A stretch of DNA of 62,052 nucleotides, counting the filler, from Candidatus Omnitrophota bacterium (lineage in GTDB: Bacteria; Omnitrophota; Gorgyraeia; Zapsychrales; JBDRMG01): the NCBI GenBank assembly GCA_043812495.1. It is 7 parts of 7 records of this genome, joined end to end, with 100 filler letters (N's around TTAATTAATTAA, not from the genome) between each part and the next. Parts side by side here need not be neighbours in the genome. Positions count along the whole stretch, not along the records: positions 1 to 13,263 come from JBDRMG010000019.1; 6 more parts are not named here. One strand, given 5' to 3'. The notes under the pieces are model-generated. The model was given only the letters and a program-made list of their open reading frames with translations. It was not told where the DNA came from and ran no database searches. Positions 1-62,052 of the stretch are shown piece after piece. Each line of letters opens with the position of its first letter. Within the stretch, counting starts at the first letter, position 1. Made by a program: the position numbers and the translations under genes.

Positions 1-2
1 CT

Positions 3-3000
3 GATGCGAAGAATACGAGCAAGCTCTATCAAATCTGTATTTAATAGATAACCTTGAGAAGTTTTGACAGCACGGTATTCGTTTTGGCTTAGAATGTCTT
101 TTATCTGTTTGATTTTTTCAAGAGGAACATCCAGAAAAAATAGGCGAGATTCGATGATATTGAGTAGAGTGGCATTGATGGCGTAGCCTGGCCTGACCGC
201 AGGCGGTGCGGTTTTTAAAGGTGCCGTGAATTCTTCATCGAAAATTTCCTCGTCCTCTCCGATTTCAATGTGACTTAAAAGTTGTTCACATTCTGTCGCC
301 ATATTCAAATAGTCGGCCGCCTTGAGGATGCTCTCGCGTATTCTTTGATAATGGCGCGGATAATGCCAGAGGGCTTTTTCCAGGAGTTCGGATAGAGTCT
401 CTTGCGTTATCCGATCATAAATCATGACAATTTGGCGGCCGCGGTTCGCCCATTCTTTTGGCAACCGCGAAGAACGCAAAGTCATATCAATGATAAAATC
501 CGCTTGGCTGCGGTCCGGATCGATCAAATAGCGGTCATGGCGGCTGTTGTATTCGGCAAAATCAACGGCATAACGCGAGAGCGCCTCCAAGCGTTCGATC
601 TCTTCTCTTTCGACGAAAATATGGATATCTCCTTTAAATCCTTCATCGGTCAAGGGACGGCCAAACCGGCCATAGGGAAGATGGACAATGAGAACATCGT
701 ATTTCGTTTTGTAATAATCAACCATCTTTTGGATATGATCAACGCGATGTTTGTTATCCAAAAACAGAGCCACGGCATAAGCGTCTGCGCTTCCTTTGCC
801 GGTGATGGCTCCCTTAATGCCGTCCTCAAAGGCTCCTTTCGGGAAAGGTTCCATATCCCAATCAAATTCACTGGGATCAAGCATGATGATTTTGATATCC
901 TTTCCTGAAAGACCTTCCGAAAGCCTCTTGGCAAAAGCAGGACCTTGGGCCCCTGGACGGCCGGTCATGCGAATAACGATTTTCGGAGTTTTCGATTGTC
1001 GCACTAAAACTTGATTGTATATTCGGTCAAAAGCCTCTTTCGGACTTAAGGCTTCCTTATCAGAAGGATAGGGATTGCGGTAAATCGGCACAACATGAAA
1101 TCCTTTTAAAGAACAAAGATCCTGCTCTAATGCATCGCCAGGGAACATCGGCCCGACATAGTAGTCCGGTTCAAGCCCATCCCTCTGCTCCGCATCGATA
1201 ATTTCATTTAAAGCATCTTTATCTTCCTGCCCTTCTCCCATGGTCAGTTTTGCCGCCAAAGCGCGATATTTGACCAATTGCTCCTCTGTTGGAATCTTGC
1301 CTTGAGCCGAAGCTTTTTGAGACAACAGATACTCATCTCTTAATTTTTCCAACGCCCCCATGATCGCTGGATTATCACGCACAGAACCCCTGCGCCTGTT
1401 GTGGAACACCATCGCCACCCCGAATCCGAGCATCATCACTACCGCCGCCAGGAGGGAGTCGGGGGATGTGAAATCAAAGCTTGGGACGCCATGGGGCAAG
1501 AATGATACACCTAAAAGCTCACCGGATTTTCCGCTGTTGGAATCTTCTCCTGTCAATTCTCCAAGAACTTCTTCGGCGAGGCGCCGAACTTCGGGGAACC
1601 TCTCTGAGAATTTCACATCACCAACGATCTCTTTTATAAGACCCAGCGTCTTTTCATCCCGCAGCCTTAACGCGCGGATGACCTCCAAAATCTCGATTTT
1701 TCCTTCACTAAAAACTTTATCCAGAATGGCGTCCAGGGCCTCCACCATAAGTTCGGTCAGTTCCTGAAATTCTTCTTTTGTAAATCGACCTTTCCATTCA
1801 AGAATAATCCTCGGCGCCAGGGGATAATCGTACCCTCCGCATCGATCTGTGATTTTGTATTTTACGCAGAGCTTAAGTTGTTCTTTAAGAAGACGAACGT
1901 GTTCCTGATGCGTAAAACGAAAATCCGGCCGCATATCAGCTTTATGAATATTAGGATTCTCAAGATTATAATCTATAAAGTACCGGATTAAGTTCTGGCT
2001 TTTTCTGTCAAATCCCATACGTTTTAATTTTCTCGCATAGACCTGCATACTCAATATAACAAACGGATCAAAAGCTCGCAGAGCCGTCAGAGAGTAAGAG
2101 GCCATCATAGACGGCATAGCCAGTTCATTCAAAGAAAATCGGCTGGGTTGGTTGTAGCTAAAGGCATACTCAAGAAAGGCCTTAATGAGTCGTTTATAGT
2201 TTTCGGGAAATCTCAGGGCCCATTTTTCTTGGCGGGGTCTTTGATAAAGATAGGGATCGCCTTGGAGTTCATTCTTCCATGGATTGATCCGCTCGATATA
2301 ATCATCGACCATTCTTTCCTCTTCTTTGTAGCTTATGCCCTCGATCGCCTCTTCCGGGTTTGTTGTTCTTCTAAACAAGCTGTCATCCATTTGAACCTCG
2401 ATATCGAAAGATACAAGCGTAAAGCGGTTTTTCCAATTATCAGGAAGCACATCGAACTTCAGATGACCTGGTTTCATCGCAAAAATAACGCCCAAATCTT
2501 CAGAGATAGCAAATTTATTTTCTTCAGAATCTTTCGCGATGTTCCATGCGGGCTTACCCATACCATTGAAGGCAAAGACTCGTTTGGTAAAGTCAGGTTC
2601 ATAAATATACATCAGCTCAAAAACCGAACCGGCGTAACGCGCATTGATCTCTCTGGCTGCCCTTCGGTCAATGAATGATTCATTGACCGGATAAACCATG
2701 GCCCATAAGAGAAATATTTTCTTATTTTCACGGCAGACCTTTTGGAAAGCGGTTCTGTCTGTATCATCGTTAATAGATCCCTCGGGATGTTTTTTAAGGA
2801 GATCATTGACGTAGCGAATTGCATCCGTTAATCCGCCATCTTTTTCGTTTTTGTCCTGAGGGAAACGATGGACCATGCCCAGCGCCATTGCGCATCCTGC
2901 CATCACCATCCCCGCCGCCAGGAGGAAGCAGGGGGAGGCGAAGTCAAAGTTAAAAATATCGGAAAAATTGCCGACCCCAAGACAGATACCGTTTTCAAAC

Positions 3001-6000
3001 CTTGCCTTGCTTGAGGCATCAGAGCTCGGATTTGTATCTTCTGCTATTTGAATGACGCAGGCCATTAAATTCTGTCCGGGATCGACTTCGGCGTAGCTAA
3101 CCGAAAACTCATAAATAGCCGGCTGAAAAGAAGCGGCATACAGATATTCATTTCTCACAAGGCCTAGATTGATAAGGAATTCATCGAAAGCGGCATCGAC
3201 AAAGGTCAAATACTCGATAACCCGGATACAGTTACTGGCGATAAAGCCTGCGACTCTGCCATCCCTTTGACCTTCCTCGTCTGTTAACAGTTGATCGAAG
3301 TGATGCGCGCGACAAGCGGCGTGTTGTATTTTTAAACGAAGATCATCATCGGCGATGTCCCCTGGATCAATAAGCGCCATCTTGACAATGCCAATCGTGT
3401 GAGACCCGTCTCCCGCTAAGTAGTATTCTCCTTCGGGTAACCGGCTTCCCGTGACTTCATCTAAAAGACTTTGCATGTCTTTTGAAAGATTCAAAAATGG
3501 AGCAAAAAGAATTGTTTTCCCTTCCCGGGTGAAGAATGTATTTCCGCTAGCTTCAAAAACAAGCCGAATTTCCCGCCCCTCTGATTTTTGAAAAACATTG
3601 CCGCCCTTTTCGCCAGCTCTTTTTCTTTTGAATATGCTCCAGATGCCAACGCCCATTATTATCAGCACCGCCGCCAAAAGGATTTCGAGGGAGGTGAGGA
3701 GAAAATCAAGAGGAATGACAATATCAAGTCTTTTGCCATCATTTTTACTTCTTGACGAAGCGTCATTTTTCAAAGCAGCCTGCGCAACCCTAGTGATTTC
3801 CTGTTTATCCACCTCAACATAGCTGGCTTCATAAAGAAAGCGCAACTGTTTCATGAGCCCACCAATGTCAGTCTGGCACAGACGATGAAGCGAAGTAAAA
3901 ACAGGACCCATCCATTTTTCTTCTGTCTCGTCAAAATGAAACATCATGTCATGAAATCGAAGGGGATCGAAGAAAACAAAATGTCCACAATCAGAAAATA
4001 CTTTAAAGAGCTCAAGTGACCCTCGGACAATGTCCCTTCTTGCTTGAATCGCGACCGAAGACTCGCGATGGGAAACATGAAGAAGATCATGGTAATCCCT
4101 AAAACCGCCGAGCCATTGTTCGCTGTAGAATTCAAAATTAGCAACCTTCGCAAAAGCGCCAAACCTTGGAATAAGCGAAGTCTTTGAGCTGACGGTCTGA
4201 AGGAAATCGACATAACCTTCCTTAAATTGTCCCCGGGCAGCCTTAAGGGCCATTTCGTATATCGACTGATCAGCAAGCTCAATACGCGCATAATAAACCT
4301 GGGTAAATGCATCCTCGGAAACAAAACTATAGCCGACTTTAATCTTTCCTTTTAGATTGCAATCTTTCTTGCCAAACAGACGCGCGAGTGATTTAAGCAG
4401 AAATCTTCTTTGTCTGAATAATTGTTGAATATCACAAGCGTCTGGCCCAGCACTTTGGCTATACACAAGAGGATCTTGCAGATTAGTTTTCATTCTGGTT
4501 ACTTCTATTTCTAGCGGATCCCCTTGTTCATCTTTAAAATTCTTCATGATCCCCACAATCCCAATCCCCATCATCACCAACACCACCGCCAGCATGGATT
4601 CGGGAGAGGTGAAGGAGAAATCAAAGCCTAAAGGCAGAACAATTTTGTAATCTTGTTTGTCCTCGTCTTCTTCCGGATAATCGCGCATAGAATCAAAGCG
4701 GACCCTGCCTCTTTCGCCCTCTTTATGCGTCAAGAGGATTTCACTCATCATGGCATAAGCGGGAATCAAAACACCCCTTTTTCTTAGTTCACCAACAGTT
4801 GTTTGGATGATAACGACATCGTCCCGAGAGGGGTTGCTGTGGAAAACACGGGCTGCCCTTTTTGCATCTATAAAGCCGCTTTCACCCACTCCCCAGTTTG
4901 ATTGATTAACGCTCATGGTCCCGGGAAGTCCGGCATACGGCCGCATAACACTGCGGTAAACACGAACATCGTCAGGAATCAACTGGAGATCGAGCATGTC
5001 AATGATGCGAACGATTTCTTCTGATTTCTGGATGGCGCCGCGGGAAGGGATTTTTGATGTGCCGGAGGAATGATCAATGGAAATGGGAACATTGCTCTTT
5101 AACTTGACTCTTACGGCTTGATCGCCTCCAGCGTCTATGAGAAAATCGACAATCGCCTGTAAATTATCATATTCGATATCATCGGACCTTAGAACTTCCA
5201 GGATCAAAGAGCGTATAGCGCCTAAGCTGATATATTGCCCGGCGGCCCTTAGGCGCACCTCTTCTCTCAATTTGAGAATTCGTTCTCGCTCAAACAAAAG
5301 GGGCCTGATCCCCCGACCGATGCCTATCTTTTCAGCCCATAAAACAAATTGTTTAATATAAAATTCCCGCGCCTTTTGAGAATCGAACTCAACAAACAGC
5401 AAATTTTCCAAAACGCCTCTAAGACGTAATAAATCCAATCCCCATGCCTCCGATTCATCCTCTTTATTATGCGCAATAGCCATCGCCACCCCAAAGCCCA
5501 CCATCACTAAAAGCGCCCCCAGCATGGATTCGGGGGAGGTGAGGGTGAAGTCAAAACCAATAAAACCTCTAAATTCTCTAACTGAATTTTTTCTATCTAA
5601 ATCTTTCTGCGCTATAACACCCCAAGCTAAAAGATTATTCTGAGAATCGTTAACATGAATAGTGACGATGTCTTCCAGTAATCCAAACCCATGTTTCTTC
5701 AAGAATGACCTTATCTCTTGTTCATCTTGAAATACCCGCCTTTGCAAAAATTCAAATAATTCCTTAGCTTCTTGCACATTTTCTATCTTCTGCTCGGTCT
5801 TGCTTATTAACCGTTCACCCTCACTGATTCTTTCAGGCAAAGGACGTAAGACATAAGCATTTTCGCCTAATTCAGGTTTGTGGACATAGCATAACTCAAG
5901 AGCGGCCTTCCCCAAAAGCATAAGTTCGTGTTTCGCTACATCATAATTGATTCTATTTATGCTATATGATATTAAACCAAATTCATTAATGCTGATCTCA

Positions 6001-9000
6001 GGAATCTCTTGTCCAATGGCCATCTTTAAATAATTCAGAATAAACTCTAAAATTGTCAATTGCAGGGGAGCATCTTCTGCTGTTCCGCTTAATAAAAATG
6101 AATCAGGATGATGTAGGATTAATATAACCTTTCCGTTTGGCTTAAGAATTCTGCTTGCCTCTTGAAAGGCATCATTTTTCTTCATATACGATAAAGAGAA
6201 TGAAAAAATAACGCCATCAGAAAATTCATCACCAAAAGGCATTTGCTCAGCTTTTGCAACTCGATGTCGAGGATCACCTTTTTTATCAAAATAGGCATCA
6301 ACTGAATAGGTTGTCATTTGGGAATTTTTTCCCTCAATGTCTTTGGAAAGCTTGCTATCTGCCGAGCCAATATCAACGAGGACTGCTTTGGGTTTTGTTA
6401 TATGGGTGCTTACGGCGCTGAGTATAAAACTTCTAGCATGTTTGAAGGGTTCGGCATCAATGCCAAAAGAAATATTCGTGTTATGGTCCGATTTCTCTCC
6501 GTTTCTGGAATGTACCATCGCCCAAACCCCAATCCCAAGCATAAAGAGAATTGCCCCCACCATCGATTCCATGGAGGCGACGCCAAAATCAAAGAGAATC
6601 ATGTGATTTCGTAAATGCTCCCCTGGCTCATCAGAAGAGAGGATGGGATAATCTCTAAAATCACTGCCGGCGACGTGTAAATGTCCTCCGGGTTTGGCAA
6701 CTGATCTTATTTCTTTAAATAATCTCGCTTTTATTGTTTCGTCGTGCATCTGCCCTATGACACGGTTAATGACCAATAGATCGACTTCCTTAAGGAGCGC
6801 TGAAAATGCCGAGGACGGCATCTCGCATGCGATGAGCCGAATATTTCTGTTAAACTCATCGGGACGTGCATTGAATTCATCCATGACATCGAGCCGTAAT
6901 TTTACAATAATACCATTCCTGGCCTTGTTATCACTCAGAGCCGTCAAAATGTCATATCCCTTTTTAAGTCTTTGTTCGGCTCCGCGAATGACTGTTTCGT
7001 TTTTATCCATTCCTATAAATTCAAGCTCAAATTCCTCAAAATCCGATATGGATCGTTTCAGGCCGCGCCTAACCAACGTCTTCCAGCTGATGATTTCTTG
7101 TCCGAACCCGCACCCAGCTATCAGAATATTTATTTTTCGATTACTCGTTTTTCTTTTTTCATTCAGGATGCATCGGATAATATTATCGAAATCGACGACG
7201 TTATATTGCTCTCGTAAAAAATAGCTTTCCGCTTGCGTTTCTCCGACCAGCGCAAGATGCTTTAAGAAAACATCGAACATACCCAAAAGGAGTCGATCCG
7301 TGCCCTTGGCTAACATATTCAAAACCCGATCATAGTTCCCTTGATATTTCCGACAGAAGAGGTCTGTGTAACTAAAATATTTTAGAAATTGTCCCGTTAT
7401 CCTTTTGTCTATGCCCCGCTCTTCGAATTGGCGGCCAAGCGTACCTCTCATCGCTATATATATTTCTGATTCATACTTTTCTGCAAAATCCTCATACCCC
7501 AGTAAATTCGGATATAGGCTTTCATCCCTTCCCCTTTTTGTCCATTCTTCCCTAAAGGATTGAAGTGGGTCATCGGATTTTTTTACCCTCACCATCATTG
7601 CCACTCCAACCCCAAGTATCATCAACACCGCCGCCAGCAGGAATTCGGGGGAGGGGAGGGTGAGATTAAAGGGAACTGCGGGCAAGAGGAGATTGACAGC
7701 GCTCGGAGCGTATGATATGCTCTTTTTAGATATATTCCCGGAATCTAACAAATTTGACAGAAATCTTAGAGGCCAAGACGTTATGAAAGTCAATAATCTT
7801 TTAGATAGAATCGTCGCCAATCCCGATATCCAGCACGGCAAACCATGCGTCAAGGGCACGCGCACCCCTGTATATGTTGTATTGGAGGCATTGTCCTTAG
7901 GATTAACGCCGGATAAAATCAAGGAAGAATACCCTCCCCTGACAGATGAAGATATCCAAGCCTGCCTTTCTTTCGCAGCGCTCCTTGCCAACGAAGAAGA
8001 ATCCCCTTTACGGCTTAAGACATGAGACTTCTTTTGGATGCCGATGTTCCCCGTTCTTTTGGCCATAGGCTTAAGTCCGAGGGCCACGAAGTTGCCGATG
8101 TCCGAGATATATCCAAAATTCCTCTGAAAGACGAAGCAATTTATAAGCTCGCTATTGATGAGCGAAGAACCTTGATTACCCGTGATTTGGATTTCAGCAA
8201 CATTCTTCTGTATCCACCAAAACCTACCTTTGGCATAATCGTCCTTAGGACCTACCAATTGTCGACCGATGGAATGTTCGAGGTGCTTCGACAATCGCTC
8301 CAAAAGACAACAGAGGATAAGCTCCGAGGAACGCTTGTTATCGTCCAAATAGACCGTCTGCGTTTTTATCGTTAACACCGGCACGCTCATCATCCATATC
8401 ATTAAAATTCCAACTCCCGCCGCCATCCCCGCCGCGAGGAAGAAGTCGGGGGAGGTGAGGGCAAAGTCAAAAGGAATCATAAGGCTGCTTATTGAAGTCG
8501 AACCGGAACCACCCGAAGAGATTACAATATGCTTACGCGTATACTCTAAGACAACCCTCATGACATCTTGAGCATATCGTTCAGTACATCTTCCTTCGAT
8601 TGGCTCTGCAAGAAGAACATCTATTCTTTGCATCAAAGGTTCTATTTTTTGCGGTGAAAGCCTGTGAACTGCTCTGATAAGGCATATCTTGTTATTCTCT
8701 TCTAATTGATCGGGATCAATCTCACAAACAGGAGAAATTTGATAAAGCAATTGAAAGACACGTTCTGTATTTAATTCAACAGTGACTCTTGCGATATCAT
8801 CAAAGGAAATAATCGGTTCATCACTATGCAATGATATAAAACTATTGAAGAGCTTAGTAATCCATTCTTCACCATGCTTAAGTCCAAACGTAATAGGTAC
8901 CTCATTGAATAATCGGCCAGCATACGCAGGGTCTTTCTGGATAAGCTCAATGAATATCGGTTTTACCCTATTTGTGTAGAGCTCCACAGGCGCATGGGCA

Positions 9001-12000
9001 TCATAATAACAACTACAAATTTCTAAAAGGGCGGCATGGACTAATTTGATCCAAAATAGACTGCCGTCTTTTGGTTTTGAGCCATCAGAGAAATGGACAA
9101 GCTCTACCAAGGATGTATTGTTGATGATTTCCCGGCTTACCATTTGTATGATTTCATCAGGGCCATCATCAATGGTGACAAATACGATGGAAGATGCGAT
9201 GAGAAGATCTCTGTGTTCCTGCCAATCCAGATCCAATTCTTCAAAGAACTCCATGGCCGCAAAAAGTCCTCGGCGTTCGCCATCCCAGCCTCTTCTAAGG
9301 TAAAAAATGTGAACATCTTCCAGCCCACATTCTCCCGCTTTTTGGTTTAATCCTCTGTACATACCTTCATGAAGCCCCTTAGGTATCCTCCAATCAAACT
9401 GCAAGGATATTAAATGCTCAAGATAATCTCTTTTTATTTCTATGGGAAGACCAGAGGATCTGGCTGCTTTGACATATTCAATGAGTTCTTCATGATGGGC
9501 TTTAAAGTATTCTTCGCTTGCTTTAAAGGCTGCTTGGCGGGCTTGTTCTTGAGTAAGGCCTTGTGTTAATGCTTTTAATCTTTCCGCTCCCTGACAATCA
9601 AAGATATCTGAAAGGACAACGGCAGGAATGTTGTCCTCAAGAAGCCTCCAGCTAATCGTAAAGACAATGACATCAGGTTTCTTTCTTACCTCTATAGTGA
9701 ACACTTCTTGTCTTGCTTCAGGGATAAGTACCACCTCTATGGACTGATCAGAGGGAGCATGTACGAGGACTCCCTTAAGCAACTCTTCTATTCTGCCTGG
9801 TAAGAGTTCCCTTTCGTGGTGATCAAGATCAGCTATCCCCCCTGGGCCTTTGGTTATTCGAATAATCTCAAAAGAAGCGTTCCCTATTTCTCTTCTTAAC
9901 GTAACAGCAGGCTTTGGTGTTTTCTTAAAAACCAAACCAGGATAATCAAAAGTACACACTATCCCTAAAATCCCAACCCCAACCAAAAGCCCTATGATCA
10001 GCCAGCCGGAAAGGTCACCTGATAAAATGAATATATGATTTATGGGGTCTCCTTCGCCTGGTTCAGTCTTGCTTTCATTATCCTTTGCCTCAGAAGATTC
10101 TTCTTTAAATGTGAAATCAGCGGCCAGGGCTTCTTTCAGGGTGGGAAGTTTTAGAATCGGCGCATGTCCGCTAAAATAAGAATCCACCAAAGCCTTGGCC
10201 CAACGCGCCTCTAGATACCCCTGATCAATAATGACCCTATCAGTCTCCACCTGCTCAGTATTATTTGGCGATACGACTTTTATGCGGCCGGTTTGTCGAT
10301 CAATTTTGACCACACCGCCATCTGAGGAAAACCCGCTAATTTCATCCGCGGAGAATATCATCTTGTACTCAAATGAGAATCTTCCTACACATTTGGTTAA
10401 CAGCAAAATTGTGACGAACATTTGAAGAATCAAGTAATCGCGCATGGCTTCATTTTGGAACCTGGTTAATTCTGTACCGTCCGCGGCCAGAAGACGAATA
10501 TCTTCTTTTGCCAAGCGATAACCCCATGGACCAAGATAGATCGCAATCTTATGCTTTACGGCAAACACCTCTACATCTTTAAAACCGATGCGTCTTGACA
10601 CTCCTTCATATTGTTTGGAATCAAAACAGGTCGTCATGTCCCTGATGCCCGTTTCTTCTGGTTGAATCGCCATGGGTTCAGGTAAATCGAAAAGAAACTG
10701 GTTAAACTCACTTACGGGAAAGCTTGGATGCCGTACTGTCCATCTCAAACTGGTTTGGTCTTCTGCGCGCTTAACCGTAATCTCAGACAAAGAACCCTGC
10801 CATTGGTCGTGAATAATCTTCATTTGAGCCAAGAAAATGTCAAATTCCGTGTGGAAATCCTTAAGCCGCCCTTCGGCTTTTAGTTGTTCGCCGTACCATC
10901 CGAAGAACTTTTCTCTTATGTCTTCGAAAATGGCATAAGCCGTATCCTTGAGCGTGCCAAACAGGATATCAAGCATAACGACCAAGGCCGGTGTGTCGCC
11001 TTGATTTGCGAATAAATTTGCAAACTCTTTTGTTTCTCTAGACTTCTCTTGTTTAACAGCCTGAAATGTTTCTCTCGCTGAAACCATATTCCCTCTTAAG
11101 CGGAATGTTTTCTCAAGTCTTAGATCATCGAAAAATTCAGCTAATTCTTCATAATCTCGCGGCTCTAAATCAAAAGGAAAAATCAAAAAGCGCCAGAAAG
11201 TCAAATCATCATCATACGCTTGCTGATTTCCTTTTAGAACTTCGAGCAGGCCTTCGTCTGTCTTTTCCATGAATTTACTTGCGAAATATAGCATGTCTCG
11301 GTAAACGGAACTTATGGAAAAGATTGTCTCGTCCCAAGCCTGCGTCGAAAGGGAAGCGAAAGCATCTTCCGGTAAGCGCAAAAGAGCCACCTCCGGGACA
11401 AGAACAAGAGCCTTTAACCCTGTTAGGAAGGCCATCCATTGTTCTTTCATCATGTCTTCTTTTCCTCTTTGAGGGAATAAAACCTCGTATAACTGAGCGG
11501 CTTTGCTTCCCGGTTCTTCTTTGGCTTTCTTTTCCAAATTTGAGCGCAAGGTTAAATAATTGTTCTCTTCTGTACCAATGAGATCGGATTGAGCATAAGA
11601 CCCACCGAAAGTCTCCTGAAAGACATCGAAAAGAATCTCTGGAACAATGTAGGCTCGCTGACTAACCTTTTTTATGATACCGTCGAATGTTTCACGAGTT
11701 CTGGCCAACATTTGAGCCTTGCGCGCTTGGGCTTCTTCTATTTCTTTCTTGAGTGTTTCCAGGCATTCGTTTGCCTTTCTTAATTTTTCTTCCGGAGTGG
11801 TAGATTCGTTTATCTCGTTAAAGTAAGTCAAAAGACTTGTATGGGTCGCTTCCTCTTTCTGATCTCTCTCTCCTCCCAGATCCTCCCGAGTCCTCCAAAG
11901 AGAATCTAAACGAATTAAAATTCCGGTAATCTGGCCGAAACGTTTGACATCTGCGTCTAATCTATTCTCTGTTCGTTCAAAATCATCATATCGTTCAACG

Positions 12001-13262
12001 GAAACGATAGACTCGATGTCGGCGCGGAACCTTTTGGCCAATGAGCCGGGGATGCTTTGATTCAGCTGAGGTAAATCAATGTCTCTGTATTTGTTTTCAT
12101 GTTCGCTGAGTTGCAAAGAAAGCACATTGCGCGCCTTAATCCTCTTGTCTTTGATTCTGTTGAATATGGATCGGACAGAATCACGAATACTTTTCAGGCC
12201 TGCAAAGGCATACGAAAAAGCCTCTGCGTCGTGTCCGTCGCTTGAGTAGAAATGGTCTAACGGGCTATTCCGGGCCTGCCACGCCTTCCTTCGATCGGTA
12301 ATGGTACTTAATTCATCGTCTAAAATGACGCCCCATTCTTTGGCCTGGTCAATCATGGCCTGAATATTTTCCTCCATATGGTGTAACCGTTTCTCGTTTT
12401 TCTTCGCGTCTTTGGTCAGGGGCCTATCGTTAGGGAATTTTCGTTCGCAGGGCAAATAAGGATCTTGAGCTTTTTCATCCTGAAAGGTCTTCTGTCTGTG
12501 GTGCTTTTCTGTAATACGGCGGACTTCACTTACCAGCGCTTCTTCGGATAAAACCTCTCCAAAGAGTTGCCTGACCCTCTCGATGACCTCATCTGTAATC
12601 CACGCGGTCATGGACGAAAGCCCTTCGGGTCCTCGGAAATCACTCCAAAAAGTTGTTATTAGTTTTCGGCTTTCCTCTTCGGCGCGTTCACGGACGATTT
12701 TGATCTGCCGGCCGATCCAATATTGGTCGGCATCCACTTCTTCTTGTTCCTCTGAGGTCTCAACTTCTTCTTCAGGCTTGACGTGACTTTGGATGGCCAT
12801 TTCTAAGGTAAGACCCTTTTTAAGTTTAATACGTTCAATTTCCCTAAATCGCTCTGGAGATAGAATGGTCGGATCGGCAGCCTCTTTGCCTTGGAATTGA
12901 GAGAAGAAAGCTTTGGCTTGCGTGATATCTGCATTATACGCAAGCCCCCCCTTATCTTGATGCGAATCGATCGTCGCCAAATAAATCGTGTTATGATAAA
13001 GATTGATGACATAAAAAATAGATTGCTTGGGAATACGGATGTGACCGACGTTGGGAACATCGATATTCTTAAACCGCCCGATGACTTTATTTGCCACATC
13101 CTGCGTGTACGCCATATAATGGATAATCCAAATCTTTGCGGCAACAACAGGCTTTAATACCGCCGGCAAAGTATCCCAATCCTGCATGAATCGTTTGGAG
13201 GGGATAATGTCAAAGGATTGCTGCTGATTGGCCCGTACCATGGCGAGGACCGCCAGCGCCAA
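3..13262 (-). CDS. Giant modular multi-domain protein, partial at both ends (>=4420 aa), with hydrophobic repeats separating unrelated domains
   Basis: Manual reading of + strand triplets starting at positions divisible by 3 from 3 to 13260 found no TTA/CTA/TCA, so this minus frame has no stop. It runs off the window edge and into the contig end, which probably explains its absence from the ORF track. The translation contains recognisable motifs (methyltransferase, CheR-like, kinase-like). Confidence 0.93.
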   Translation of the reverse strand, partial: MALAVLAMVRANQQQSFDIIPSKRFMQDWDTLPAVLKPVVAAKIWIIHYMAYTQDVANKVIGRFKNIDVPNVGHIRIPKQSIFYVINLYHNTIYLATIDSHQDKGGLAYNADITQAKAFFSQFQGKEAADPTILSPERFREIERIKLKKGLTLEMAIQSHVKPEEEVETSEEQEEVDADQYWIGRQIKIVRERAEEESRKLITTFWSDFRGPEGLSSMTAWITDEVIERVRQLFGEVLSEEALVSEVRRITEKHHRQKTFQDEKAQDPYLPCERKFPNDRPLTKDAKKNEKRLHHMEENIQAMIDQAKEWGVILDDELSTITDRRKAWQARNSPLDHFYSSDGHDAEAFSYAFAGLKSIRDSVRSIFNRIKDKRIKARNVLSLQLSEHENKYRDIDLPQLNQSIPGSLAKRFRADIESIVSVERYDDFERTENRLDADVKRFGQITGILIRLDSLWRTREDLGGERDQKEEATHTSLLTYFNEINESTTPEEKLRKANECLETLKKEIEEAQARKAQMLARTRETFDGIIKKVSQRAYIVPEILFDVFQETFGGSYAQSDLIGTEENNYLTLRSNLEKKAKEEPGSKAAQLYEVLFPQRGKEDMMKEQWMAFLTGLKALVLVPEVALLRLPEDAFASLSTQAWDETIFSISSVYRDMLYFASKFMEKTDEGLLEVLKGNQQAYDDDLTFWRFLIFPFDLEPRDYEELAEFFDDLRLEKTFRLRGNMVSARETFQAVKQEKSRETKEFANLFANQGDTPALVVMLDILFGTLKDTAYAIFEDIREKFFGWYGEQLKAEGRLKDFHTEFDIFLAQMKIIHDQWQGSLSEITVKRAEDQTSLRWTVRHPSFPVSEFNQFLFDLPEPMAIQPEETGIRDMTTCFDSKQYEGVSRRIGFKDVEVFAVKHKIAIYLGPWGYRLAKEDIRLLAADGTELTRFQNEAMRDYLILQMFVTILLLTKCVGRFSFEYKMIFSADEISGFSSDGGVVKIDRQTGRIKVVSPNNTEQVETDRVIIDQGYLEARWAKALVDSYFSGHAPILKLPTLKEALAADFTFKEESSEAKDNESKTEPGEGDPINHIFILSGDLSGWLIIGLLVGVGILGIVCTFDYPGLVFKKTPKPAVTLRREIGNASFEIIRITKGPGGIADLDHHERELLPGRIEELLKGVLVHAPSDQSIEVVLIPEARQEVFTIEVRKKPDVIVFTISWRLLEDNIPAVVLSDIFDCQGAERLKALTQGLTQEQARQAAFKASEEYFKAHHEELIEYVKAARSSGLPIEIKRDYLEHLISLQFDWRIPKGLHEGMYRGLNQKAGECGLEDVHIFYLRRGWDGERRGLFAAMEFFEELDLDWQEHRDLLIASSIVFVTIDDGPDEIIQMVSREIINNTSLVELVHFSDGSKPKDGSLFWIKLVHAALLEICSCYYDAHAPVELYTNRVKPIFIELIQKDPAYAGRLFNEVPITFGLKHGEEWITKLFNSFISLHSDEPIISFDDIARVTVELNTERVFQLLYQISPVCEIDPDQLEENNKICLIRAVHRLSPQKIEPLMQRIDVLLAEPIEGRCTERYAQDVMRVVLEYTRKHIVISSGGSGSTSISSLMIPFDFALTSPDFFLAAGMAAGVGILMIWMMSVPVLTIKTQTVYLDDNKRSSELILCCLLERLSKHLEHSIGRQLVGPKDDYAKGRFWWIQKNVAEIQITGNQGSSLINSELINCFVFQRNFGYISDIGNFVALGLKPMAKRTGNIGIQKKSHVLSRKGDSSSLARSAAKERQAWISSSVRGGYSSLILSGVNPKDNASNTTYTGVRVPLTHGLPCWISGLATILSKRLLTFITSWPLRFLSNLLDSGNISKKSISYAPSAVNLLLPAVPFNLTLPSPEFLLAAVLMILGVGVAMMVRVKKSDDPLQSFREEWTKRGRDESLYPNLLGYEDFAEKYESEIYIAMRGTLGRQFEERGIDKRITGQFLKYFSYTDLFCRKYQGNYDRVLNMLAKGTDRLLLGMFDVFLKHLALVGETQAESYFLREQYNVVDFDNIIRCILNEKRKTSNRKINILIAGCGFGQEIISWKTLVRRGLKRSISDFEEFELEFIGMDKNETVIRGAEQRLKKGYDILTALSDNKARNGIIVKLRLDVMDEFNARPDEFNRNIRLIACEMPSSAFSALLKEVDLLVINRVIGQMHDETIKARLFKEIRSVAKPGGHLHVAGSDFRDYPILSSDEPGEHLRNHMILFDFGVASMESMVGAILFMLGIGVWAMVHSRNGEKSDHNTNISFGIDAEPFKHARSFILSAVSTHITKPKAVLVDIGSADSKLSKDIEGKNSQMTTYSVDAYFDKKGDPRHRVAKAEQMPFGDEFSDGVIFSFSLSYMKKNDAFQEASRILKPNGKVILILHHPDSFLLSGTAEDAPLQLTILEFILNYLKMAIGQEIPEISINEFGLISYSINRINYDVAKHELMLLGKAALELCYVHKPELGENAYVLRPLPERISEGERLISKTEQKIENVQEAKELFEFLQRRVFQDEQEIRSFLKKHGFGLLEDIVTIHVNDSQNNLLAWGVIAQKDLDRKNSVREFRGFIGFDFTLTSPESMLGALLVMVGFGVAMAIAHNKEDESEAWGLDLLRLRGVLENLLFVEFDSQKAREFYIKQFVLWAEKIGIGRGIRPLLFERERILKLREEVRLRAAGQYISLGAIRSLILEVLRSDDIEYDNLQAIVDFLIDAGGDQAVRVKLKSNVPISIDHSSGTSKIPSRGAIQKSEEIVRIIDMLDLQLIPDDVRVYRSVMRPYAGLPGTMSVNQSNWGVGESGFIDAKRAARVFHSNPSRDDVVIIQTTVGELRKRGVLIPAYAMMSEILLTHKEGERGRVRFDSMRDYPEEDEDKQDYKIVLPLGFDFSFTSPESMLAVVLVMMGIGIVGIMKNFKDEQGDPLEIEVTRMKTNLQDPLVYSQSAGPDACDIQQLFRQRRFLLKSLARLFGKKDCNLKGKIKVGYSFVSEDAFTQVYYARIELADQSIYEMALKAARGQFKEGYVDFLQTVSSKTSLIPRFGAFAKVANFEFYSEQWLGGFRDYHDLLHVSHRESSVAIQARRDIVRGSLELFKVFSDCGHFVFFDPLRFHDMMFHFDETEEKWMGPVFTSLHRLCQTDIGGLMKQLRFLYEASYVEVDKQEITRVAQAALKNDASSRSKNDGKRLDIVIPLDFLLTSLEILLAAVLIIMGVGIWSIFKRKRAGEKGGNVFQKSEGREIRLVFEASGNTFFTREGKTILFAPFLNLSKDMQSLLDEVTGSRLPEGEYYLAGDGSHTIGIVKMALIDPGDIADDDLRLKIQHAACRAHHFDQLLTDEEGQRDGRVAGFIASNCIRVIEYLTFVDAAFDEFLINLGLVRNEYLYAASFQPAIYEFSVSYAEVDPGQNLMACVIQIAEDTNPSSDASSKARFENGICLGVGNFSDIFNFDFASPCFLLAAGMVMAGCAMALGMVHRFPQDKNEKDGGLTDAIRYVNDLLKKHPEGSINDDTDRTAFQKVCRENKKIFLLWAMVYPVNESFIDRRAAREINARYAGSVFELMYIYEPDFTKRVFAFNGMGKPAWNIAKDSEENKFAISEDLGVIFAMKPGHLKFDVLPDNWKNRFTLVSFDIEVQMDDSLFRRTTNPEEAIEGISYKEEERMVDDYIERINPWKNELQGDPYLYQRPRQEKWALRFPENYKRLIKAFLEYAFSYNQPSRFSLNELAMPSMMASYSLTALRAFDPFVILSMQVYARKLKRMGFDRKSQNLIRYFIDYNLENPNIHKADMRPDFRFTHQEHVRLLKEQLKLCVKYKITDRCGGYDYPLAPRIILEWKGRFTKEEFQELTELMVEALDAILDKVFSEGKIEILEVIRALRLRDEKTLGLIKEIVGDVKFSERFPEVRRLAEEVLGELTGEDSNSGKSGELLGVSFLPHGVPSFDFTSPDSLLAAVVMMLGFGVAMVFHNRRRGSVRDNPAIMGALEKLRDEYLLSQKASAQGKIPTEEQLVKYRALAAKLTMGEGQEDKDALNEIIDAEQRDGLEPDYYVGPMFPGDALEQDLCSLKGFHVVPIYRNPYPSDKEALSPKEAFDRIYNQVLVRQSKTPKIVIRMTGRPGAQGPAFAKRLSEGLSGKDIKIIMLDPSEFDWDMEPFPKGAFEDGIKGAITGKGSADAYAVALFLDNKHRVDHIQKMVDYYKTKYDVLIVHLPYGRFGRPLTDEGFKGDIHIFVEREEIERLEALSRYAVDFAEYNSRHDRYLIDPDRSQADFIIDMTLRSSRLPKEWANRGRQIVMIYDRITQETLSELLEKALWHYPRHYQRIRESILKAADYLNMATECEQLLSHIEIGEDEEIFDEEFTAPLKTAPPAVRPGYAINATLLNIIESRLFFLDVPLEKIKQIKDILSQNEYRAVKTSQGYLLNTDLIELARILRI
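1410..1478 (-). repeat. Linker repeat R1: FDFTSPDSLLAAVVMMLGFGVAM
   Basis: Translated in the giant frame; followed by VFHNRRRG. Confidence 0.9.
2874..2948 (-). repeat. Linker repeat R2: FDFASPCFLLAAGMVMAGCAMALGM
   Basis: Same frame; DNA core ccgccgccaggaggaagcagggggaggcgaagtcaaag closely matches R1. Confidence 0.9.
3639..3710 (-). repeat. Linker repeat R3: LDFLLTSLEILLAAVLIIMGVGIW
   Basis: Same frame; followed by SIFKRKR. Confidence 0.85.
4545..4625 (-). repeat. Linker repeat R4: FDFSFTSPESMLAVVLVMMGIGIVGIM
   Basis: Same frame; DNA core cagcatggattcgggagaggtga nearly identical to R5. Confidence 0.9.
5481..5555 (-). repeat. Linker repeat R5: FDFTLTSPESMLGALLVMVGFGVAM
   Basis: Same frame. 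Confidence 0.9.
6516..6593 (-). repeat. Linker repeat R6: FDFGVASMESMVGAILFMLGIGVWAM
   Basis: Same frame, more diverged. Confidence 0.85.
7593..7670 (-). repeat. Linker repeat R7: FNLTLPSPEFLLAAVLMILGVGVAMM
   Basis: Same frame; followed by VRVKK. Confidence 0.9.
7693..7721 (+). promoter_or_regulatory. Sigma70-type promoter for the TA operon with a palindromic spacer (possible operator)
   Basis: TTGACA (7693-7698), 17-nt spacer, TATGCT (7716-7721) preceded by TGn; spacer contains CGCTC-G-GAGCG. Confidence 0.75.
7783..8025 (+). CDS. DUF433-family antitoxin (80 aa)
   Basis: RIVANPDIQHGKPCVKGTRTPVYVVLEALSLG...EEYPPLTDEDIQACLSFAA is the DUF433 pattern. ATG 7783 follows AGAGG and the promoter, so the track's upstream GTG start is unlikely. 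Confidence 0.92.
   Translation: MKVNNLLDRIVANPDIQHGKPCVKGTRTPVYVVLEALSLGLTPDKIKEEYPPLTDEDIQACLSFAALLANEEESPLRLKT
8022..8375 (+). CDS. DUF5615 / VapC45-like PIN-domain toxin
   Basis: MRLLLDADVP...GHEVADV...DEAIYKLA...RTLITRDLDF...GIIVLR; ATGA overlap with the DUF433 gene. Confidence 0.9.
   Translation: MRLLLDADVPRSFGHRLKSEGHEVADVRDISKIPLKDEAIYKLAIDERRTLITRDLDFSNILLYPPKPTFGIIVLRTYQLSTDGMFEVLRQSLQKTTEDKLRGTLVIVQIDRLRFYR
8388..8471 (-). repeat. Linker repeat R8: FDFALTSPDFFLAAGMAAGVGILMIWMM
   Basis: Same frame; ends 12 nt from the toxin stop codon. Confidence 0.9.
9954..10041 (-). repeat. Divergent hydrophobic linker R9: HIFILSGDLSGWLIIGLLVGVGILGIVC
   Basis: Same frame; GVGI hydrophobic helix after a polar linker, no FDF..SP motif. 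Confidence 0.6.
13239..13262 (-). repeat. Probable truncated linker at contig end (LALAVLAM)
   Basis: Hydrophobic run ending in AM like the other copies; the contig breaks here. Confidence 0.55.
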
Positions 13263-13263
13263 A

Positions 13264-57702: not shown

Positions 57703-60700
57703 AAAAAATTCCTGTTCAATAAGAATTGCGCAATTCGCCCAGGCGGGGATGAGCTGGACATATTGATCGCGCACCACATCAAGCGCTGAACCATCCAAAT
57801 AATCAATGGCGCGGATATTGATGGCTTTGGCTTTATTTCGCAAGGCTTTAACGAAATCCAAGGCCTCTTTTCGTGTTTCATAAAAGATGAGGCCGTTGAG
57901 CGATGATGTTGGCGCTTCAATAAGCTTGAGCTCGACTTCTGTCACGACACCAAGCGTGCCTTCGGCGCCGATGAATAAATCAATCAAGTCCATGCTGGGT
58001 TCGAGAAAATAACCGGCAGAATTGTCTTCGACGTTCGGCCGTTTAATTTCGGAAATTTGAAGTTCAATACGCTCGCCATTGGACAGTTCAATCAAAAATT
58101 CGCCTTTGGCGCTGGCAAATGTTTCTCCGCGTTTGATGTCTAGGATTTCGCCATTGGCCAAAACAACTTTTAGGCGCGTGACCCATTTGCGCGTGGAGCC
58201 GTATTTGAATCCGCGCGTGCCAAAGGCATCGGTATTGATATTGCCGCCCAAGGTCGCGGTCCGTTCGGTCGGATTCGGCGGATAGAATAATCCTTCTGAT
58301 TCGGCGGCCTTATGGATATCTCCCAAACGCGCGCCGGCCATCACGACCATACGGTATTCATCGCCTTCTTTCCTGATATCAATAATCTCATTCATCTTTT
58401 CCATGCTAATGACCCATCCGCCGAATGGCACAGCCGCGGCCACTAACCCCGTGCCCCCGCCCCTTATGGAGGCGGGAATTCCTAATCTATTGGCTTCCTT
58501 AAGAATTGCGGCGACTTCTTCGGGGGTTCTAGGTAAGAAAGCGCGCGCGGCATGGCCTCCTTGGGTGCGTGATTCATCTTTGAGATAATCTTCAAGCTCC
58601 TCGGGAGCGTCTTTGCTGGAAACATCATGAATCGCCCAATGTTCTTTCTCTGCTTCGGCCCGGGCGCGGGGGTTATTCTCTTTCCTCGAACCGCCCGCGA
58701 ACACCGCCAGAAGACCAAAACCGAGAAGACCTACCAGAAGGACTATCGGATTTAACGGATCCGCCAAAAGATAAATGCCGAGGGGAGCGTCATTCTCGTC
58801 TTCTGGCTTTATTCTCCTTGAGCTTTGACATCCGATTTGTGTTATATCTTTAAAAGAACATGTTGTTCTAGAATAAACAAATACTCTTTTTATCCATTTT
58901 CTTGGAATATCGCAGGCGATGTCGATTTCAATTCCTTGATCATAAGTCACGGCCTCAGAAGGTATTTCGGCACGTTCCGCTTCAATAAGAACGCAGTAGA
59001 AATCCGTTCTTACGGGAATGAAGTCTATCGATTTCATAAACGACCCGGATGCAGCAACAGCATGACCCGGCTCATAAGCAAAATGATGCGTGGCACATTC
59101 TGTATCTTTTAACTTCAAGCCTCTTTTTATAATTTTCTCAATAGAAATTTTTCTTAAACGCATAGCTCGATATATAAATTTATTAAGCTTTAAGTCCCTC
59201 CCAATATTTTCGTTGATTTGCGTTATGGCTTTTACGGCTAAGGTCCAATCCAATTGATCAGTATTGTCAAATTTACTTTCGCGCAATATAGACTCGATAT
59301 TACTCTTTTCATTGCTTCCTTTCTTCTTCGCCCCGACCCGGGCGCGGGGGTTATTCTTTTTCCGCGAACCGCCCGCGAACACCGCCAGAAGACTGAAACC
59401 GAGAAGACCGGCAAGGGTGAAGAGTAAACTCGGAAGGTCGGCCGGCGAGATGCCGAAAAGCGTATTACCTGATTCCGAGGTCATGGAAGGCCCTTGGTCT
59501 TTATCTTGAAAACTTCTAATAGCGGCCATTCGTTCTTGTGCCAATTGGATGGCCTGATCATAACTTCTGACTTCATCGCGGTTCCGGAACGTCGCTTCAC
59601 GGCGTTTCTCGTACAATTCATCGATGGCTGACTGCAAAATATCCAGCGACGGCCGGCCTTCGAGAGGGTCATTGCCGAATGTAAGCGGAAGATCGCCTTT
59701 CAAAAATCTTTCCGCCTGCGGCCGGTAAGGCTTGCCGTCTGGTGATTCGGCAAATTGACGGATCCATTCCTCGGCCATTTGTTCTCCCTTCTTCGGGTCT
59801 TTCCCTAAATCTTCGGCCAAATAACGAAGACCCCGGATCAATCCGTGAAAGGCCACGCTTGGATTAGAGATACAGACAGGGACTTGCGCGCAGCGGGGTT
59901 TGACAAATGCGGCGGGTCGTGTCATCATTCCGTCGGGGATAATGGGCTCTATGGTATAAAGCCGAACGAGGGATTGGATAAAGGCGGGGATATCAACGCC
60001 TGATTTTGTCCGTCTTATGGTGGTTATCCGGATGCGAGGCGGGTCCCGGGAATTCCTTTTGAGCACAAAATCTCCGCTGTTGACAAAAACACCGGCCATC
60101 GTTGTTCCGCCGTCTTTATCAGGCTCATAATGATAAACAATAGCAGCCGCCATTTCGGCCAAGACAGGGGGGATATCCTCTTTGGGCAGAGGAATGAACC
60201 GGCTGACCCCGGACTCGCGGTCCGATTCCCAGCGGCGAAGCACTCCCTGGGCGAAGTTCAACTCCTCATGCCCGCGGAGAAATTCGCTGACAACAATGGG
60301 AAAACTCATCCATTGATCGCCTTTTGTAATCCCGAGCCCGAACGTCCGCTCACCATGTGGTTCCGGAATAAACCGTCTTCTGCCCGATTCCCAATACCTC
60401 TTAAAACAACGCGCGTCATGAGCGACCGCCGCAACATGGCTTTTTTCGATGCTCAGCGGAAATGATAACGCAAAATCTTCACCTCCCAAAAGAAGCTTAT
60501 AAATGATGGCAAACCGCCCGAACTTAAGTGGTTGCAGTTCGGCCTGGGAGTCCGTTTTTCTGAAAATCTCAAGGAGCCACTTCTCTAAACGTTTTACTTC
60601 ATGCAGGCTTAGCCTGTCTTGAGAAGAGATCGGCGGATAATCAAAAGAAACAATGACATTATCATGAGTCCATCTGTATTCATCATCCGTGACTTTGATG

Positions 60701-62052
60701 CCGCCAATTAAAAATAGCATACTACTAAACAGGGTCGCTGGGCCAATCTGACCGCTGATGGCTGACAGCTGATGGCTCAACAGGCCCAGCGGCCCGAGGA
60801 TGATGACAATCAAACCAAAAGACGCAGCAAAAATAGGGACGTTCTTCAGCCACCGATAAAGGGTGTCCCCTTTAACATATGCTTGGGGACACCCATAGGT
60901 TCCAGCTGAAGAACGTCCCTGATTAATATACGACATTACCTGCCTCGCCTTACGGCGGGCAAGGCGGACGACATTACTACCTACTACATTACGACCTGGC
61001 CCCCGCTCTTTCTTTTGACTATGTGATTTCTTGATGATCAAAAGCACCACGGCCCCAATCATCAACAAGCCAATCAAAACAACCAAGTATTCATAGCCGG
61101 TAGTCGCTTGAATTGTTTGCCAAATACTGGACATATTAAAAGGCGCGAATGGTCCAATAGTGCAGTCGAAATCTTCAAATGGATCTTCATCTAATCCAAC
61201 CTCAGTCATATCTCTAGGGCGTCTAACGAATCGATGTCTCTTTATTTTTTCTATGGCCTCTCTTGCCAATGAATCATTCTCAGCTCCTTTGACATTCATT
61301 GCCTTATCTTTAGTCGCAATACCATGTAATATTGTATTTGATAAGGCATCCGCCACAGTTTCTAGCTTACTCAATCTGACAGTTTGACCACCGTCGGTTG
61401 ACCATAAACACCAACCCAGAGGAATCAGCCGATGATTTACCCCATTAAAGTATTCTCTATTTTTATACACCTCTATTGAGAAGACTGAAATTCTAGATTT
61501 CCTTAGTAAATCATCCACCTTTTCATAAGGAACCGGACTAATCCCGCTCAACTGCCAGATCTGCCTGAGACTTTTTGCTGCCGCTTTCATCTTATTCCAA
61601 CTGGCTCCTTTCTCTGACCTTGCTTTACTTAGAAGATCTCTGATCTGATCTAAAACTCTTAATATTCCTTTCGCACCAAATGAACCTCCCTGCAGCAAGA
61701 CTGCAGGGTATCTTTTTTTAGAAGAATCTTGAGGTTCATTCTTCGAAGCCGAATACCTAACTCTACTACGCTCAAAAATTTCACTTCGTTTCATGTTTGA
61801 GCTTCGTAGAGTTCTACTTGCGCCTTTCCGCCCAAAATCTTTGATTTTGGGCGAGATCTCGCCCTGCTTTGCAGGGCGGACATCCCCGTGGCAAGCCACG
61901 GGGTATTCGGCGAAGTAGAATAATACATCCAAAACCTCATGACTAATCACACCTTTAGCAACAGAGAGATTGTAACTTATTGTATGGATATCTACACCTA
62001 TCCTTCCAGCCGCTTCTTCTCTGTATCCATATATTTTCAAACGACCTTCCCC
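57703..62052 (-). CDS. Second giant modular protein fragment (>=1450 aa, open at both ends) with hydrophobic linkers, an ART-like domain and an FAD-linked oxidase domain
   Basis: The 1461-aa track ORF is also open upstream of its TTG to the window edge, and its stop comes from the spacer. FAD_binding_4 motifs RGGGTGL, TLGGNINT, IGAEGTLGVVT. Confidence 0.9.
58659..58731 (-). repeat. 73-bp direct repeat copy 1 (GLLGFGLLAVFAGGSRKENNPRAR)
   Basis: 69/73 nt identical to 59337-59409. Confidence 0.95.
59337..59409 (-). repeat. 73-bp direct repeat copy 2 (GLLGFSLLAVFAGGSRKKNNPRAR)
   Basis: 69/73 nt identical to 58659-58731; offset 678 nt = 226 codons. Confidence 0.95.

Follow-up and report, generated by a model that had tools for sequence, protein, structure and literature searches.

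A complete toxin–antitoxin (TA) operon lies antisense within the giant open reading frame (ORF) of an Omnitrophota genome, and ongoing selection against stop codons in the giant frame across such operons is very well supported. Comparisons of sequence give strong indirect evidence that the giant genes are read straight through the operons nested in them. The arrangement recurs phylum-wide, in several reading phases and with other TA families.

The window, meaning the whole stretch of 62,052 nucleotides that was analysed, consists of contigs strung together by runs of N, and its positions 1–13263 are one whole contig, C19 (Table 1). One minus-strand frame of C19 is free of stops from end to end (13,263 nt), so that both the start and the stop of the giant ORF fall outside the contig. 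Within 7500–8500 the giant frame contains no stop, against 6 to 22 in each of the remaining five frames. Three low-depth DNA read runs covered only pieces of the flanks, neither the operon nor its joints, and give no evidence either way. Giant genes of the Archaeovorin type have been described from Omnitrophota (bioRxiv 10.1101/2023.11.21.568195; 10.64898/2026.06.07.730766), with more than 30,000 amino acids, an N-terminal peptidase, a SecA-like domain and an upstream secretion locus as hallmarks. The C19 ORF shares with them a length of several thousand codons, many hydrophobic helices and enzyme domains of the methyltransferase type; several other contigs of the genome are also open throughout, the largest over 25,094 codons.

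Table 1. Features of contig C19, in window coordinates unless amino acids (aa) are given.
Feature	Position	Strand	Details
Giant ORF fragment, 4,420 codons	3..13262	-	Unrelated segments set apart by a repeated motif-plus-hydrophobic-helix unit
SAM-methyltransferase domains	giant-ORF aa 2012-2200 and aa 2297-2381	-	Pfam
Repeat copy upstream of promoter	7606..7675	-	Giant frame FNLTLPSPE plus hydrophobic helix
Sigma70-type promoter TTGACA-17-TATGCT with TG extension	7693..7721	+	10/12 consensus matches; predicted to drive the operon against the giant gene
Imperfect palindrome across the -10 box	7705..7723	+	Candidate antitoxin operator
DUF433 antitoxin gene, 80 aa	7783..8025	+	Pfam DUF433 E 6e-22; start ATG 7783; one base shifted relative to giant frame
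DUF5615 (PIN-like) toxin gene, 117 aa	8022..8375	+	Pfam DUF5615 E 5e-25; codons exactly antiparallel to giant frame
Repeat copy ~30 nt past toxin stop	8407..8476	-	Giant frame FDFALTSPD plus hydrophobic helix
Six more repeat copies, delimiting other segments	1409-1479, 2879-2949, 3646-3715, 4561-4630, 5491-5560, 6529-6598	-	Repeat families D1 and D2

The two plus-strand genes share an ATGA overlap, antitoxin first, and with the promoter they occupy a single segment that is bounded on each side by a copy of a coding repeat. Acidic residues D6, D29, D37, D55 and D57 of the toxin occupy columns that are invariant or nearly so in an alignment of homologues (D6, D55 and D57 are kept across nested copies), and we infer that they form its PIN-like catalytic site. 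By sequence, the toxin has only weak, unrelated matches in the PDB and the antitoxin a weak match to 2ga1, a DUF433 protein (E 0.008); NCBIfam assigns a family to neither. The promoter pattern, found at 3 sites versus 1.8 in shuffled sequence, is weak when taken alone, and no terminator-like site was found on the plus strand past the toxin. We take DUF433 to be equivalent to COG2442, and DUF5615 to COG4634. DUF433 antitoxins have been paired with COG4634/PIN_10 toxins (PMC5499597), and the VapBC10 system of Synechocystis PCC 6803 (PIN-COG2442, ssr2962/slr1767) has a promoter of its own, whose imperfect inverted repeat is bound by VapB10 (PMC3834315). In layout the C19 operon resembles VapBC10, with two genes, a DUF433-type antitoxin followed by a PIN-like toxin, and with a predicted promoter and candidate inverted repeat; unlike VapBC10, it lies wholly within an opposite-strand reading frame. 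The 0.8 kb between the two repeat copies would be a self-contained type II cassette of promoter, DUF433 antitoxin and DUF5615 toxin, which looks like a working module of the VapBC10 type on its own strand.

The initial annotation had observed that TTA, CTA or TCA in the toxin would be stops in the giant frame, and its counts and phases proved exact. The giant frame is without a stop over the toxin, and none of the toxin's 17 Leu or 6 Ser codons is one of the three (Leu: CTT 7, TTG 4, CTG 3, CTC 3; Ser: TCC 2, TCG 2, TCT 1, AGC 1). The antitoxin, in a different phase, uses TTA for 4 of its 12 Leu codons (toxin 0/17 versus antitoxin 4/12, Fisher p=0.021). It is constrained differently, allowing no T or C before TAy and no T before CAn, and the safe codon is used at all three junctions where a synonymous choice exists. 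Because it is entailed by the open giant frame, the zero count in the toxin is not a second independent fact.

An open frame of this kind is rarely produced by shuffling. When the codons were redrawn synonymously 20,000 times, with 1,171 ordinary genes of this genome supplying the codon usage, the giant frame remained free of stops across the toxin in 0.53% of draws, across the antitoxin in 9.4% and across both in 0.02%; of 3,134 real gene windows of 117 codons, 136 (4.3%) have no stop in the exact antiparallel frame. Nor is it common in free-standing homologues of similar GC, the other outcome that the annotation had held to be damaging to its idea. The antiparallel frame is open in none of the 8 control toxins below 50% GC (a small set), in 1 of 21 at 50–58% and in 10 of 33 above 58%, and for none of the 62 control toxins does the surrounding frame stay open for 600 codons. 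These controls were 62 metagenome homologues without taxonomy, taken from 80 loci with duplicates and ORFs outside 95–150 aa skipped, and they are GC-rich, only 8 of the 62 falling under 50% GC. Five of 58 controls have the whole operon open antisense, each with a GC content above 58%. A set of plasmid controls was dropped, as it held 9 distant records only, and viral contigs gave a single weak 30-residue match that was not used.

Two routes to a stop-free operon had been envisaged, the purging of stops as they arise or the retention of cassettes that happened to lack them, and five nested orthologues favour continual purging. Among them, with toxin proteins 59–70% identical, synonymous sites are saturated (pS 0.64–0.87), yet none of 82 Leu codons is TTA or CTA and none of 33 Ser codons is TCA. 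Invariant Leu columns vary among CTT, CTC, CTG and TTG, never TTA or CTA. The giant-frame peptide across the cassette is 27–41% identical, and no protein-level constraint on it was seen among the five. In the inner genes dN is far below dS, which shows that both operon genes are under purifying selection at the protein level; the outer frame shows selection against stops only. The combination of conserved openness with an unconserved giant peptide thus points to selection on stops and frameshifts rather than on the residues of the giant frame, and this supports the annotation's further proposal that the giant frame is translated through the operon. The host frames of the four closest relatives are open for at least 7,400–12,500 codons (one locus contains N bases). 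A 5.3 kb DNA query matched relatives almost only over the operon, the flanks being unrelated, and no empty site was found, the flanks having no DNA match in 40 relatives. Since the giant frame is also intact across a HicA gene with an internal stop and across a truncated DUF5615 toxin, its openness is independent of the toxin.

A protein search with the toxin against 401 genomes of the phylum gave 75 matches, spread over 50 of the genomes, and all but one, at a contig end, were analysed. They comprised 76 toxin ORFs, reduced to 71 when 5 partial or broken ones were dropped; L001 was excluded as a duplicate. Of the 71 intact toxins, 46 are antisense to a frame that runs open for 600 codons or more, 6 to one open over a short stretch and 19 to a closed one, and no toxin among the 71 is nested on the same strand. 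The 46 (17 antiparallel, 29 in a shifted phase) come from 32 of the 47 genomes and represent 19 of the 23 families. Because this first grouping used the very feature being counted, the open frame, loci were regrouped by their flanks alone, a non-circular test in which both flanks must be open for 150 or more codons in one antisense frame. By this definition 42 of the 71 loci qualify, and their operons contain 0 stops versus 252 expected. In the remainder neither flank is open (18), the sequence is too short (9) or one flank is open (2). No locus among the 71 has a broken or shifted frame between two open flanks, and in most non-nested operons of the phylum stops are as numerous as expected. 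Pooled p-values overstate the case because the genomes are kin.

The letters avoided track the phase of nesting. Antiparallel toxins have TTA or CTA at none of 243 Leu codons and make stop-forming junctions at 76 of 146 chances, whereas toxins in a shifted phase use TTA or CTA for 93 of 426 Leu and TCA for 42 of 186 Ser codons and make no such junction in 178 chances. The (antitoxin, toxin) phase pairs are (0,2) in 21 operons, (0,0) in 12, (1,2) in 7 and (2,0) in 5, and spacer lengths within a pair differ in steps of three only. On a quick tree with many open forks the phase combinations cluster and several origins are needed; the combination found in the window forms a clade of five with support 99, made up of the five orthologues compared above. 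A strict promoter pattern is present within 140 nt upstream of 36 of 42 nested operons, compared with 6 of 19 free ones and 8 of 388 background windows.

Other TA families are nested in the same way. Of 587 candidate antisense ORFs on the giant-ORF contigs of this genome, 294 were selected for a Pfam scan, which returned four PIN genes, HicA, two HicB, DUF2283 and an IS630-type transposase, together with one AAA match outside a giant ORF and one weak cyclin match; the giant frame is open across all eight antisense regions inspected. In genome-wide searches for TA families, 7 of 9 distinct matches lie antisense in giant ORFs, which account for 14% of the DNA (binomial p 3e-5). Nested by family are PIN/PIN_3 4/4, HicA 2/2, DUF433 1/2 and ParE 0/1, plus a DUF2283 pair; DUF4258, HepT, PemK and BrnT have no match in this genome. 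Among the best 30 loci per family in the phylum, drawn from 62 (HicA), 79 (PIN_3) and 130 (ParE) matching genomes, 12 HicA and 5 PIN_3 loci are nested, the HicA and PIN_3 sets each including one locus of this genome. ParE/RelE (L232–L261), the commonest TA family searched in the phylum, is nested in none of its best 30. Within these sets nested HicA is always in the antiparallel phase and nested PIN_3 always in a shifted phase.

This genome holds six further nested TA-like modules (L072:10684-11103, L076:6282-6812, L077:3475-3909, L083:11559-12050, L086:6840-7292 and L086:9128-9601), namely four PIN, one HicAB and one DUF2283 pair, with a promoter-like pattern near each; the partners of two of the PIN genes are small, helical and not assigned to any named Pfam family. 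At L188 (G000:C20:24699-25081) a HicB gene is followed by a HicA gene with an internal TAA, the giant frame being open across both. The IS630-type transposase on the same contig (L078:8479-9487, plus strand, G000:C20) consists of two ORFs, with HTH_33 and DDE_3 domains, antisense in an open giant frame. A third ORF of 404 codons overlaps it on the plus strand, and the element is present as a single copy in the assembly.

The repeats that bound the C19 cassette are coding. Their unit (window 1409-8476) joins an F-D-F-x-L-x-S-P motif to a hydrophobic helix, often with basic residues, and is specific to C19. An HMM search found 8 copies there and 1 weak match elsewhere; other giant contigs and other genomes carry different linker repeats, such as ASSP in L001. 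Differences among 7 of the 8 copies, 0.49/0.37/0.51 by codon position, give no clear sign of selection at the protein level. Direct repeats flank 20 of the 42 nested DUF5615 operons and are not detectable in the other 22.

Unrelated segments between direct repeats, with TA cassettes that carry their own promoter, are traits shared with integrons. In the sedentary chromosomal integrons of Vibrio cholerae, such cassettes have been proposed to prevent large deletions (PMC13108822). As in that system, own-promoter TA modules are scattered here through a repeat-delimited array of unrelated segments. Unlike it, this genome lacks an integron integrase, its repeats are coding rather than attC-like hairpins, the repeat families vary between genomes and contigs, and one continuous reading frame crosses the TA cassette. 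An attC-like fold was ruled out for the 8 copies on both strands (z from -1.2 to +1.8 relative to shuffles, with RNA parameters); the consensus folds at -3.8 kcal/mol and covariation is unfavourable. No integron integrase was found in this genome, which is 90% complete and whose tyrosine recombinases are XerC and XerD only; TIGR02249 scores above cut-off in 7 of 151 genomes of the phylum, this one not among them. With neither IntI nor folding attC sites, an integron cassette array was rejected.

The explanation that we prefer begins with a TA cassette built in reverse into a giant, repeat-segmented gene. Ribosomes would have to cross the cassette to make the remainder of the giant protein, which is the simplest cause of the stop avoidance. 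The cassette would then be junk on the giant strand, a disposable linker between two hydrophobic repeats from which mutations to TTA, CTA or TCA are removed. As its segments are bounded by repeats, the giant gene is expected to lose pieces by recombination; a repeat-to-repeat deletion would also remove the antitoxin and leave the cell killed or arrested, and addiction would in this manner hold together a gene that spans tens to hundreds of kb and is prone to deletion. By analogy with superintegron cassettes we lean, with some reserve, towards seeing the cassettes as addiction modules that guard a repeat-built giant gene. The broader proposition, that giants are integrase-free, fully coding cassette arrays whose own anti-deletion system consists of antisense TA operons of several families, domesticated many times, recoded so as to leave the giant frame open and overlooked by annotation on the opposite strand, seems to us evenly balanced between true and false. 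Several observations count against a guarding role. No deletion or empty site was observed, 25 of the 71 DUF5615 toxins are not nested, ParE is nested in none of its best 30 loci, and flanking repeats are missing from 22 of the 42 nested operons. Broken toxins persist in nested position, which shows that the giant frame can outlast the loss of a module, and with no integrase found and repeats that do not fold, the cassettes have no evident route of insertion.

The nested modules could instead be selfish passengers, useless to their host, in a giant frame that is nonetheless translated: giants would tolerate in-frame junk and swap segments between lineages, and frame-transparent cassettes would spread by their own addiction. 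The unrelated flanks in each genome fit this account, as do the several origins on the tree, the IS630-type element nested in an open frame, the tolerance of broken toxins, and near-open free copies (L007, L010) that suggest traffic in and out. By itself, however, it explains neither a several-fold enrichment of TA genes in giants, despite an entry barrier of 1e-2 to 1e-4, nor the fact that almost every recognisable antisense passenger is a TA gene, and we rate it a serious but unlikely alternative. Less probable again is that nesting serves regulation, either because giant-gene transcription runs into the TA transcript or pairs with it, so that antitoxin falls and growth slows while the giant protein is made, or because TA promoters yield antisense RNA that damps the giant mRNA. 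Nested cases are without exception antisense, their promoters match the strict consensus far more often than those of free operons, and the plus strand has no terminator-like site after the toxin; but survival against convergent transcription would equally select antisense orientation and strong promoters. Selfish carriage and regulatory coupling are both compatible with the guarding explanation.

The two accounts that dispense with continuing selection fare worse. Rare stop-free operons might have been captured once or a few times, in frames that have not yet decayed, and antisense frames open by chance do occur in GC-rich homologues, as in the five whole operons among the controls. Saturated synonymous sites with Leu columns that never become TTA or CTA in the five orthologues, and the expected load of stops in most free operons of the phylum, make such a filter very improbable. 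As for chance, a codon bias of the family or an assembly artefact, some ordinary windows are indeed open in the toxin's phase and the stretch is without independent deep read support. Against these stand the same family's use of TTA or CTA at 22% when nested in another phase, the occurrence of 46 loci in 32 independently assembled genomes, and the complete lack of stops where 252 were expected; we give this account almost no credence.

Literature searches, chiefly of openly accessible papers, found no description of a TA operon nested in a giant gene. The main texts of both giant-gene preprints contain none of the terms 'antisense', 'opposite strand', 'reverse strand' or 'nested'; where the later one (10.64898/2026.06.07.730766) mentions an antitoxin, it is as a flanking gene only. 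Embedded antisense overlapping genes have been reported from E. coli O157:H7 and Pseudomonas aeruginosa as single, novel ORFs (PMC9927249, PMC8850804). The present operons resemble them in lying fully inside an opposite-strand gene and differ in being conserved operons of known families with a promoter, repeatedly nested across the phylum, in an outer frame whose amino acids are unconstrained. In an engineered entanglement, relE was placed within ilvA (bioRxiv 10.1101/2023.02.27.530340), and there too a toxin gene sits inside the frame of another gene and ties their fates together; the arrangement described here is natural, antisense and a complete TA pair, sited in a linker under no constraint and not in a folded domain. 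It provides naturally occurring cases of entire operons nested within a coding frame, a design that synthetic biology constructs deliberately.

The preprints that describe the giants do not fully settle whether they are translated as predicted. Nested operons offer a built-in test of read-through, in that synonymous drift at dozens of independent points never reaches a stop on the opposite strand. The finding also suggests how deletion-prone giant genes are maintained, and if the reading as an array with its own anti-deletion system is true, it would represent natural gene entanglement on the scale of a phylum and would explain how genes of at least 100 kb stay intact. Much of the phylum's TA complement escapes standard annotation, including 7 of the 9 matches in this genome.

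Three minor observations concern sequences beyond the C19 operon. In another genome (L007 / L275, G399:C28), two divergent DUF433/DUF5615 operons stand 800 nt apart outside a giant ORF; they have a near-identical leader of ~130 nt and antisense frames with 0 and 1 stops, and are possibly copies that left a giant gene. At L014 / L285 (G276:C15) a nested toxin ends at 61 aa and is followed by unrelated sequence that resembles a hairpin repeat element; the host frame there runs open for no fewer than 4,750 codons. Within the window itself, positions 57703-62052 (minus strand) form a second fully open contig, C32, whose 1,450 codons include a FAD_binding_4 domain and which is probably a further piece of some giant gene.
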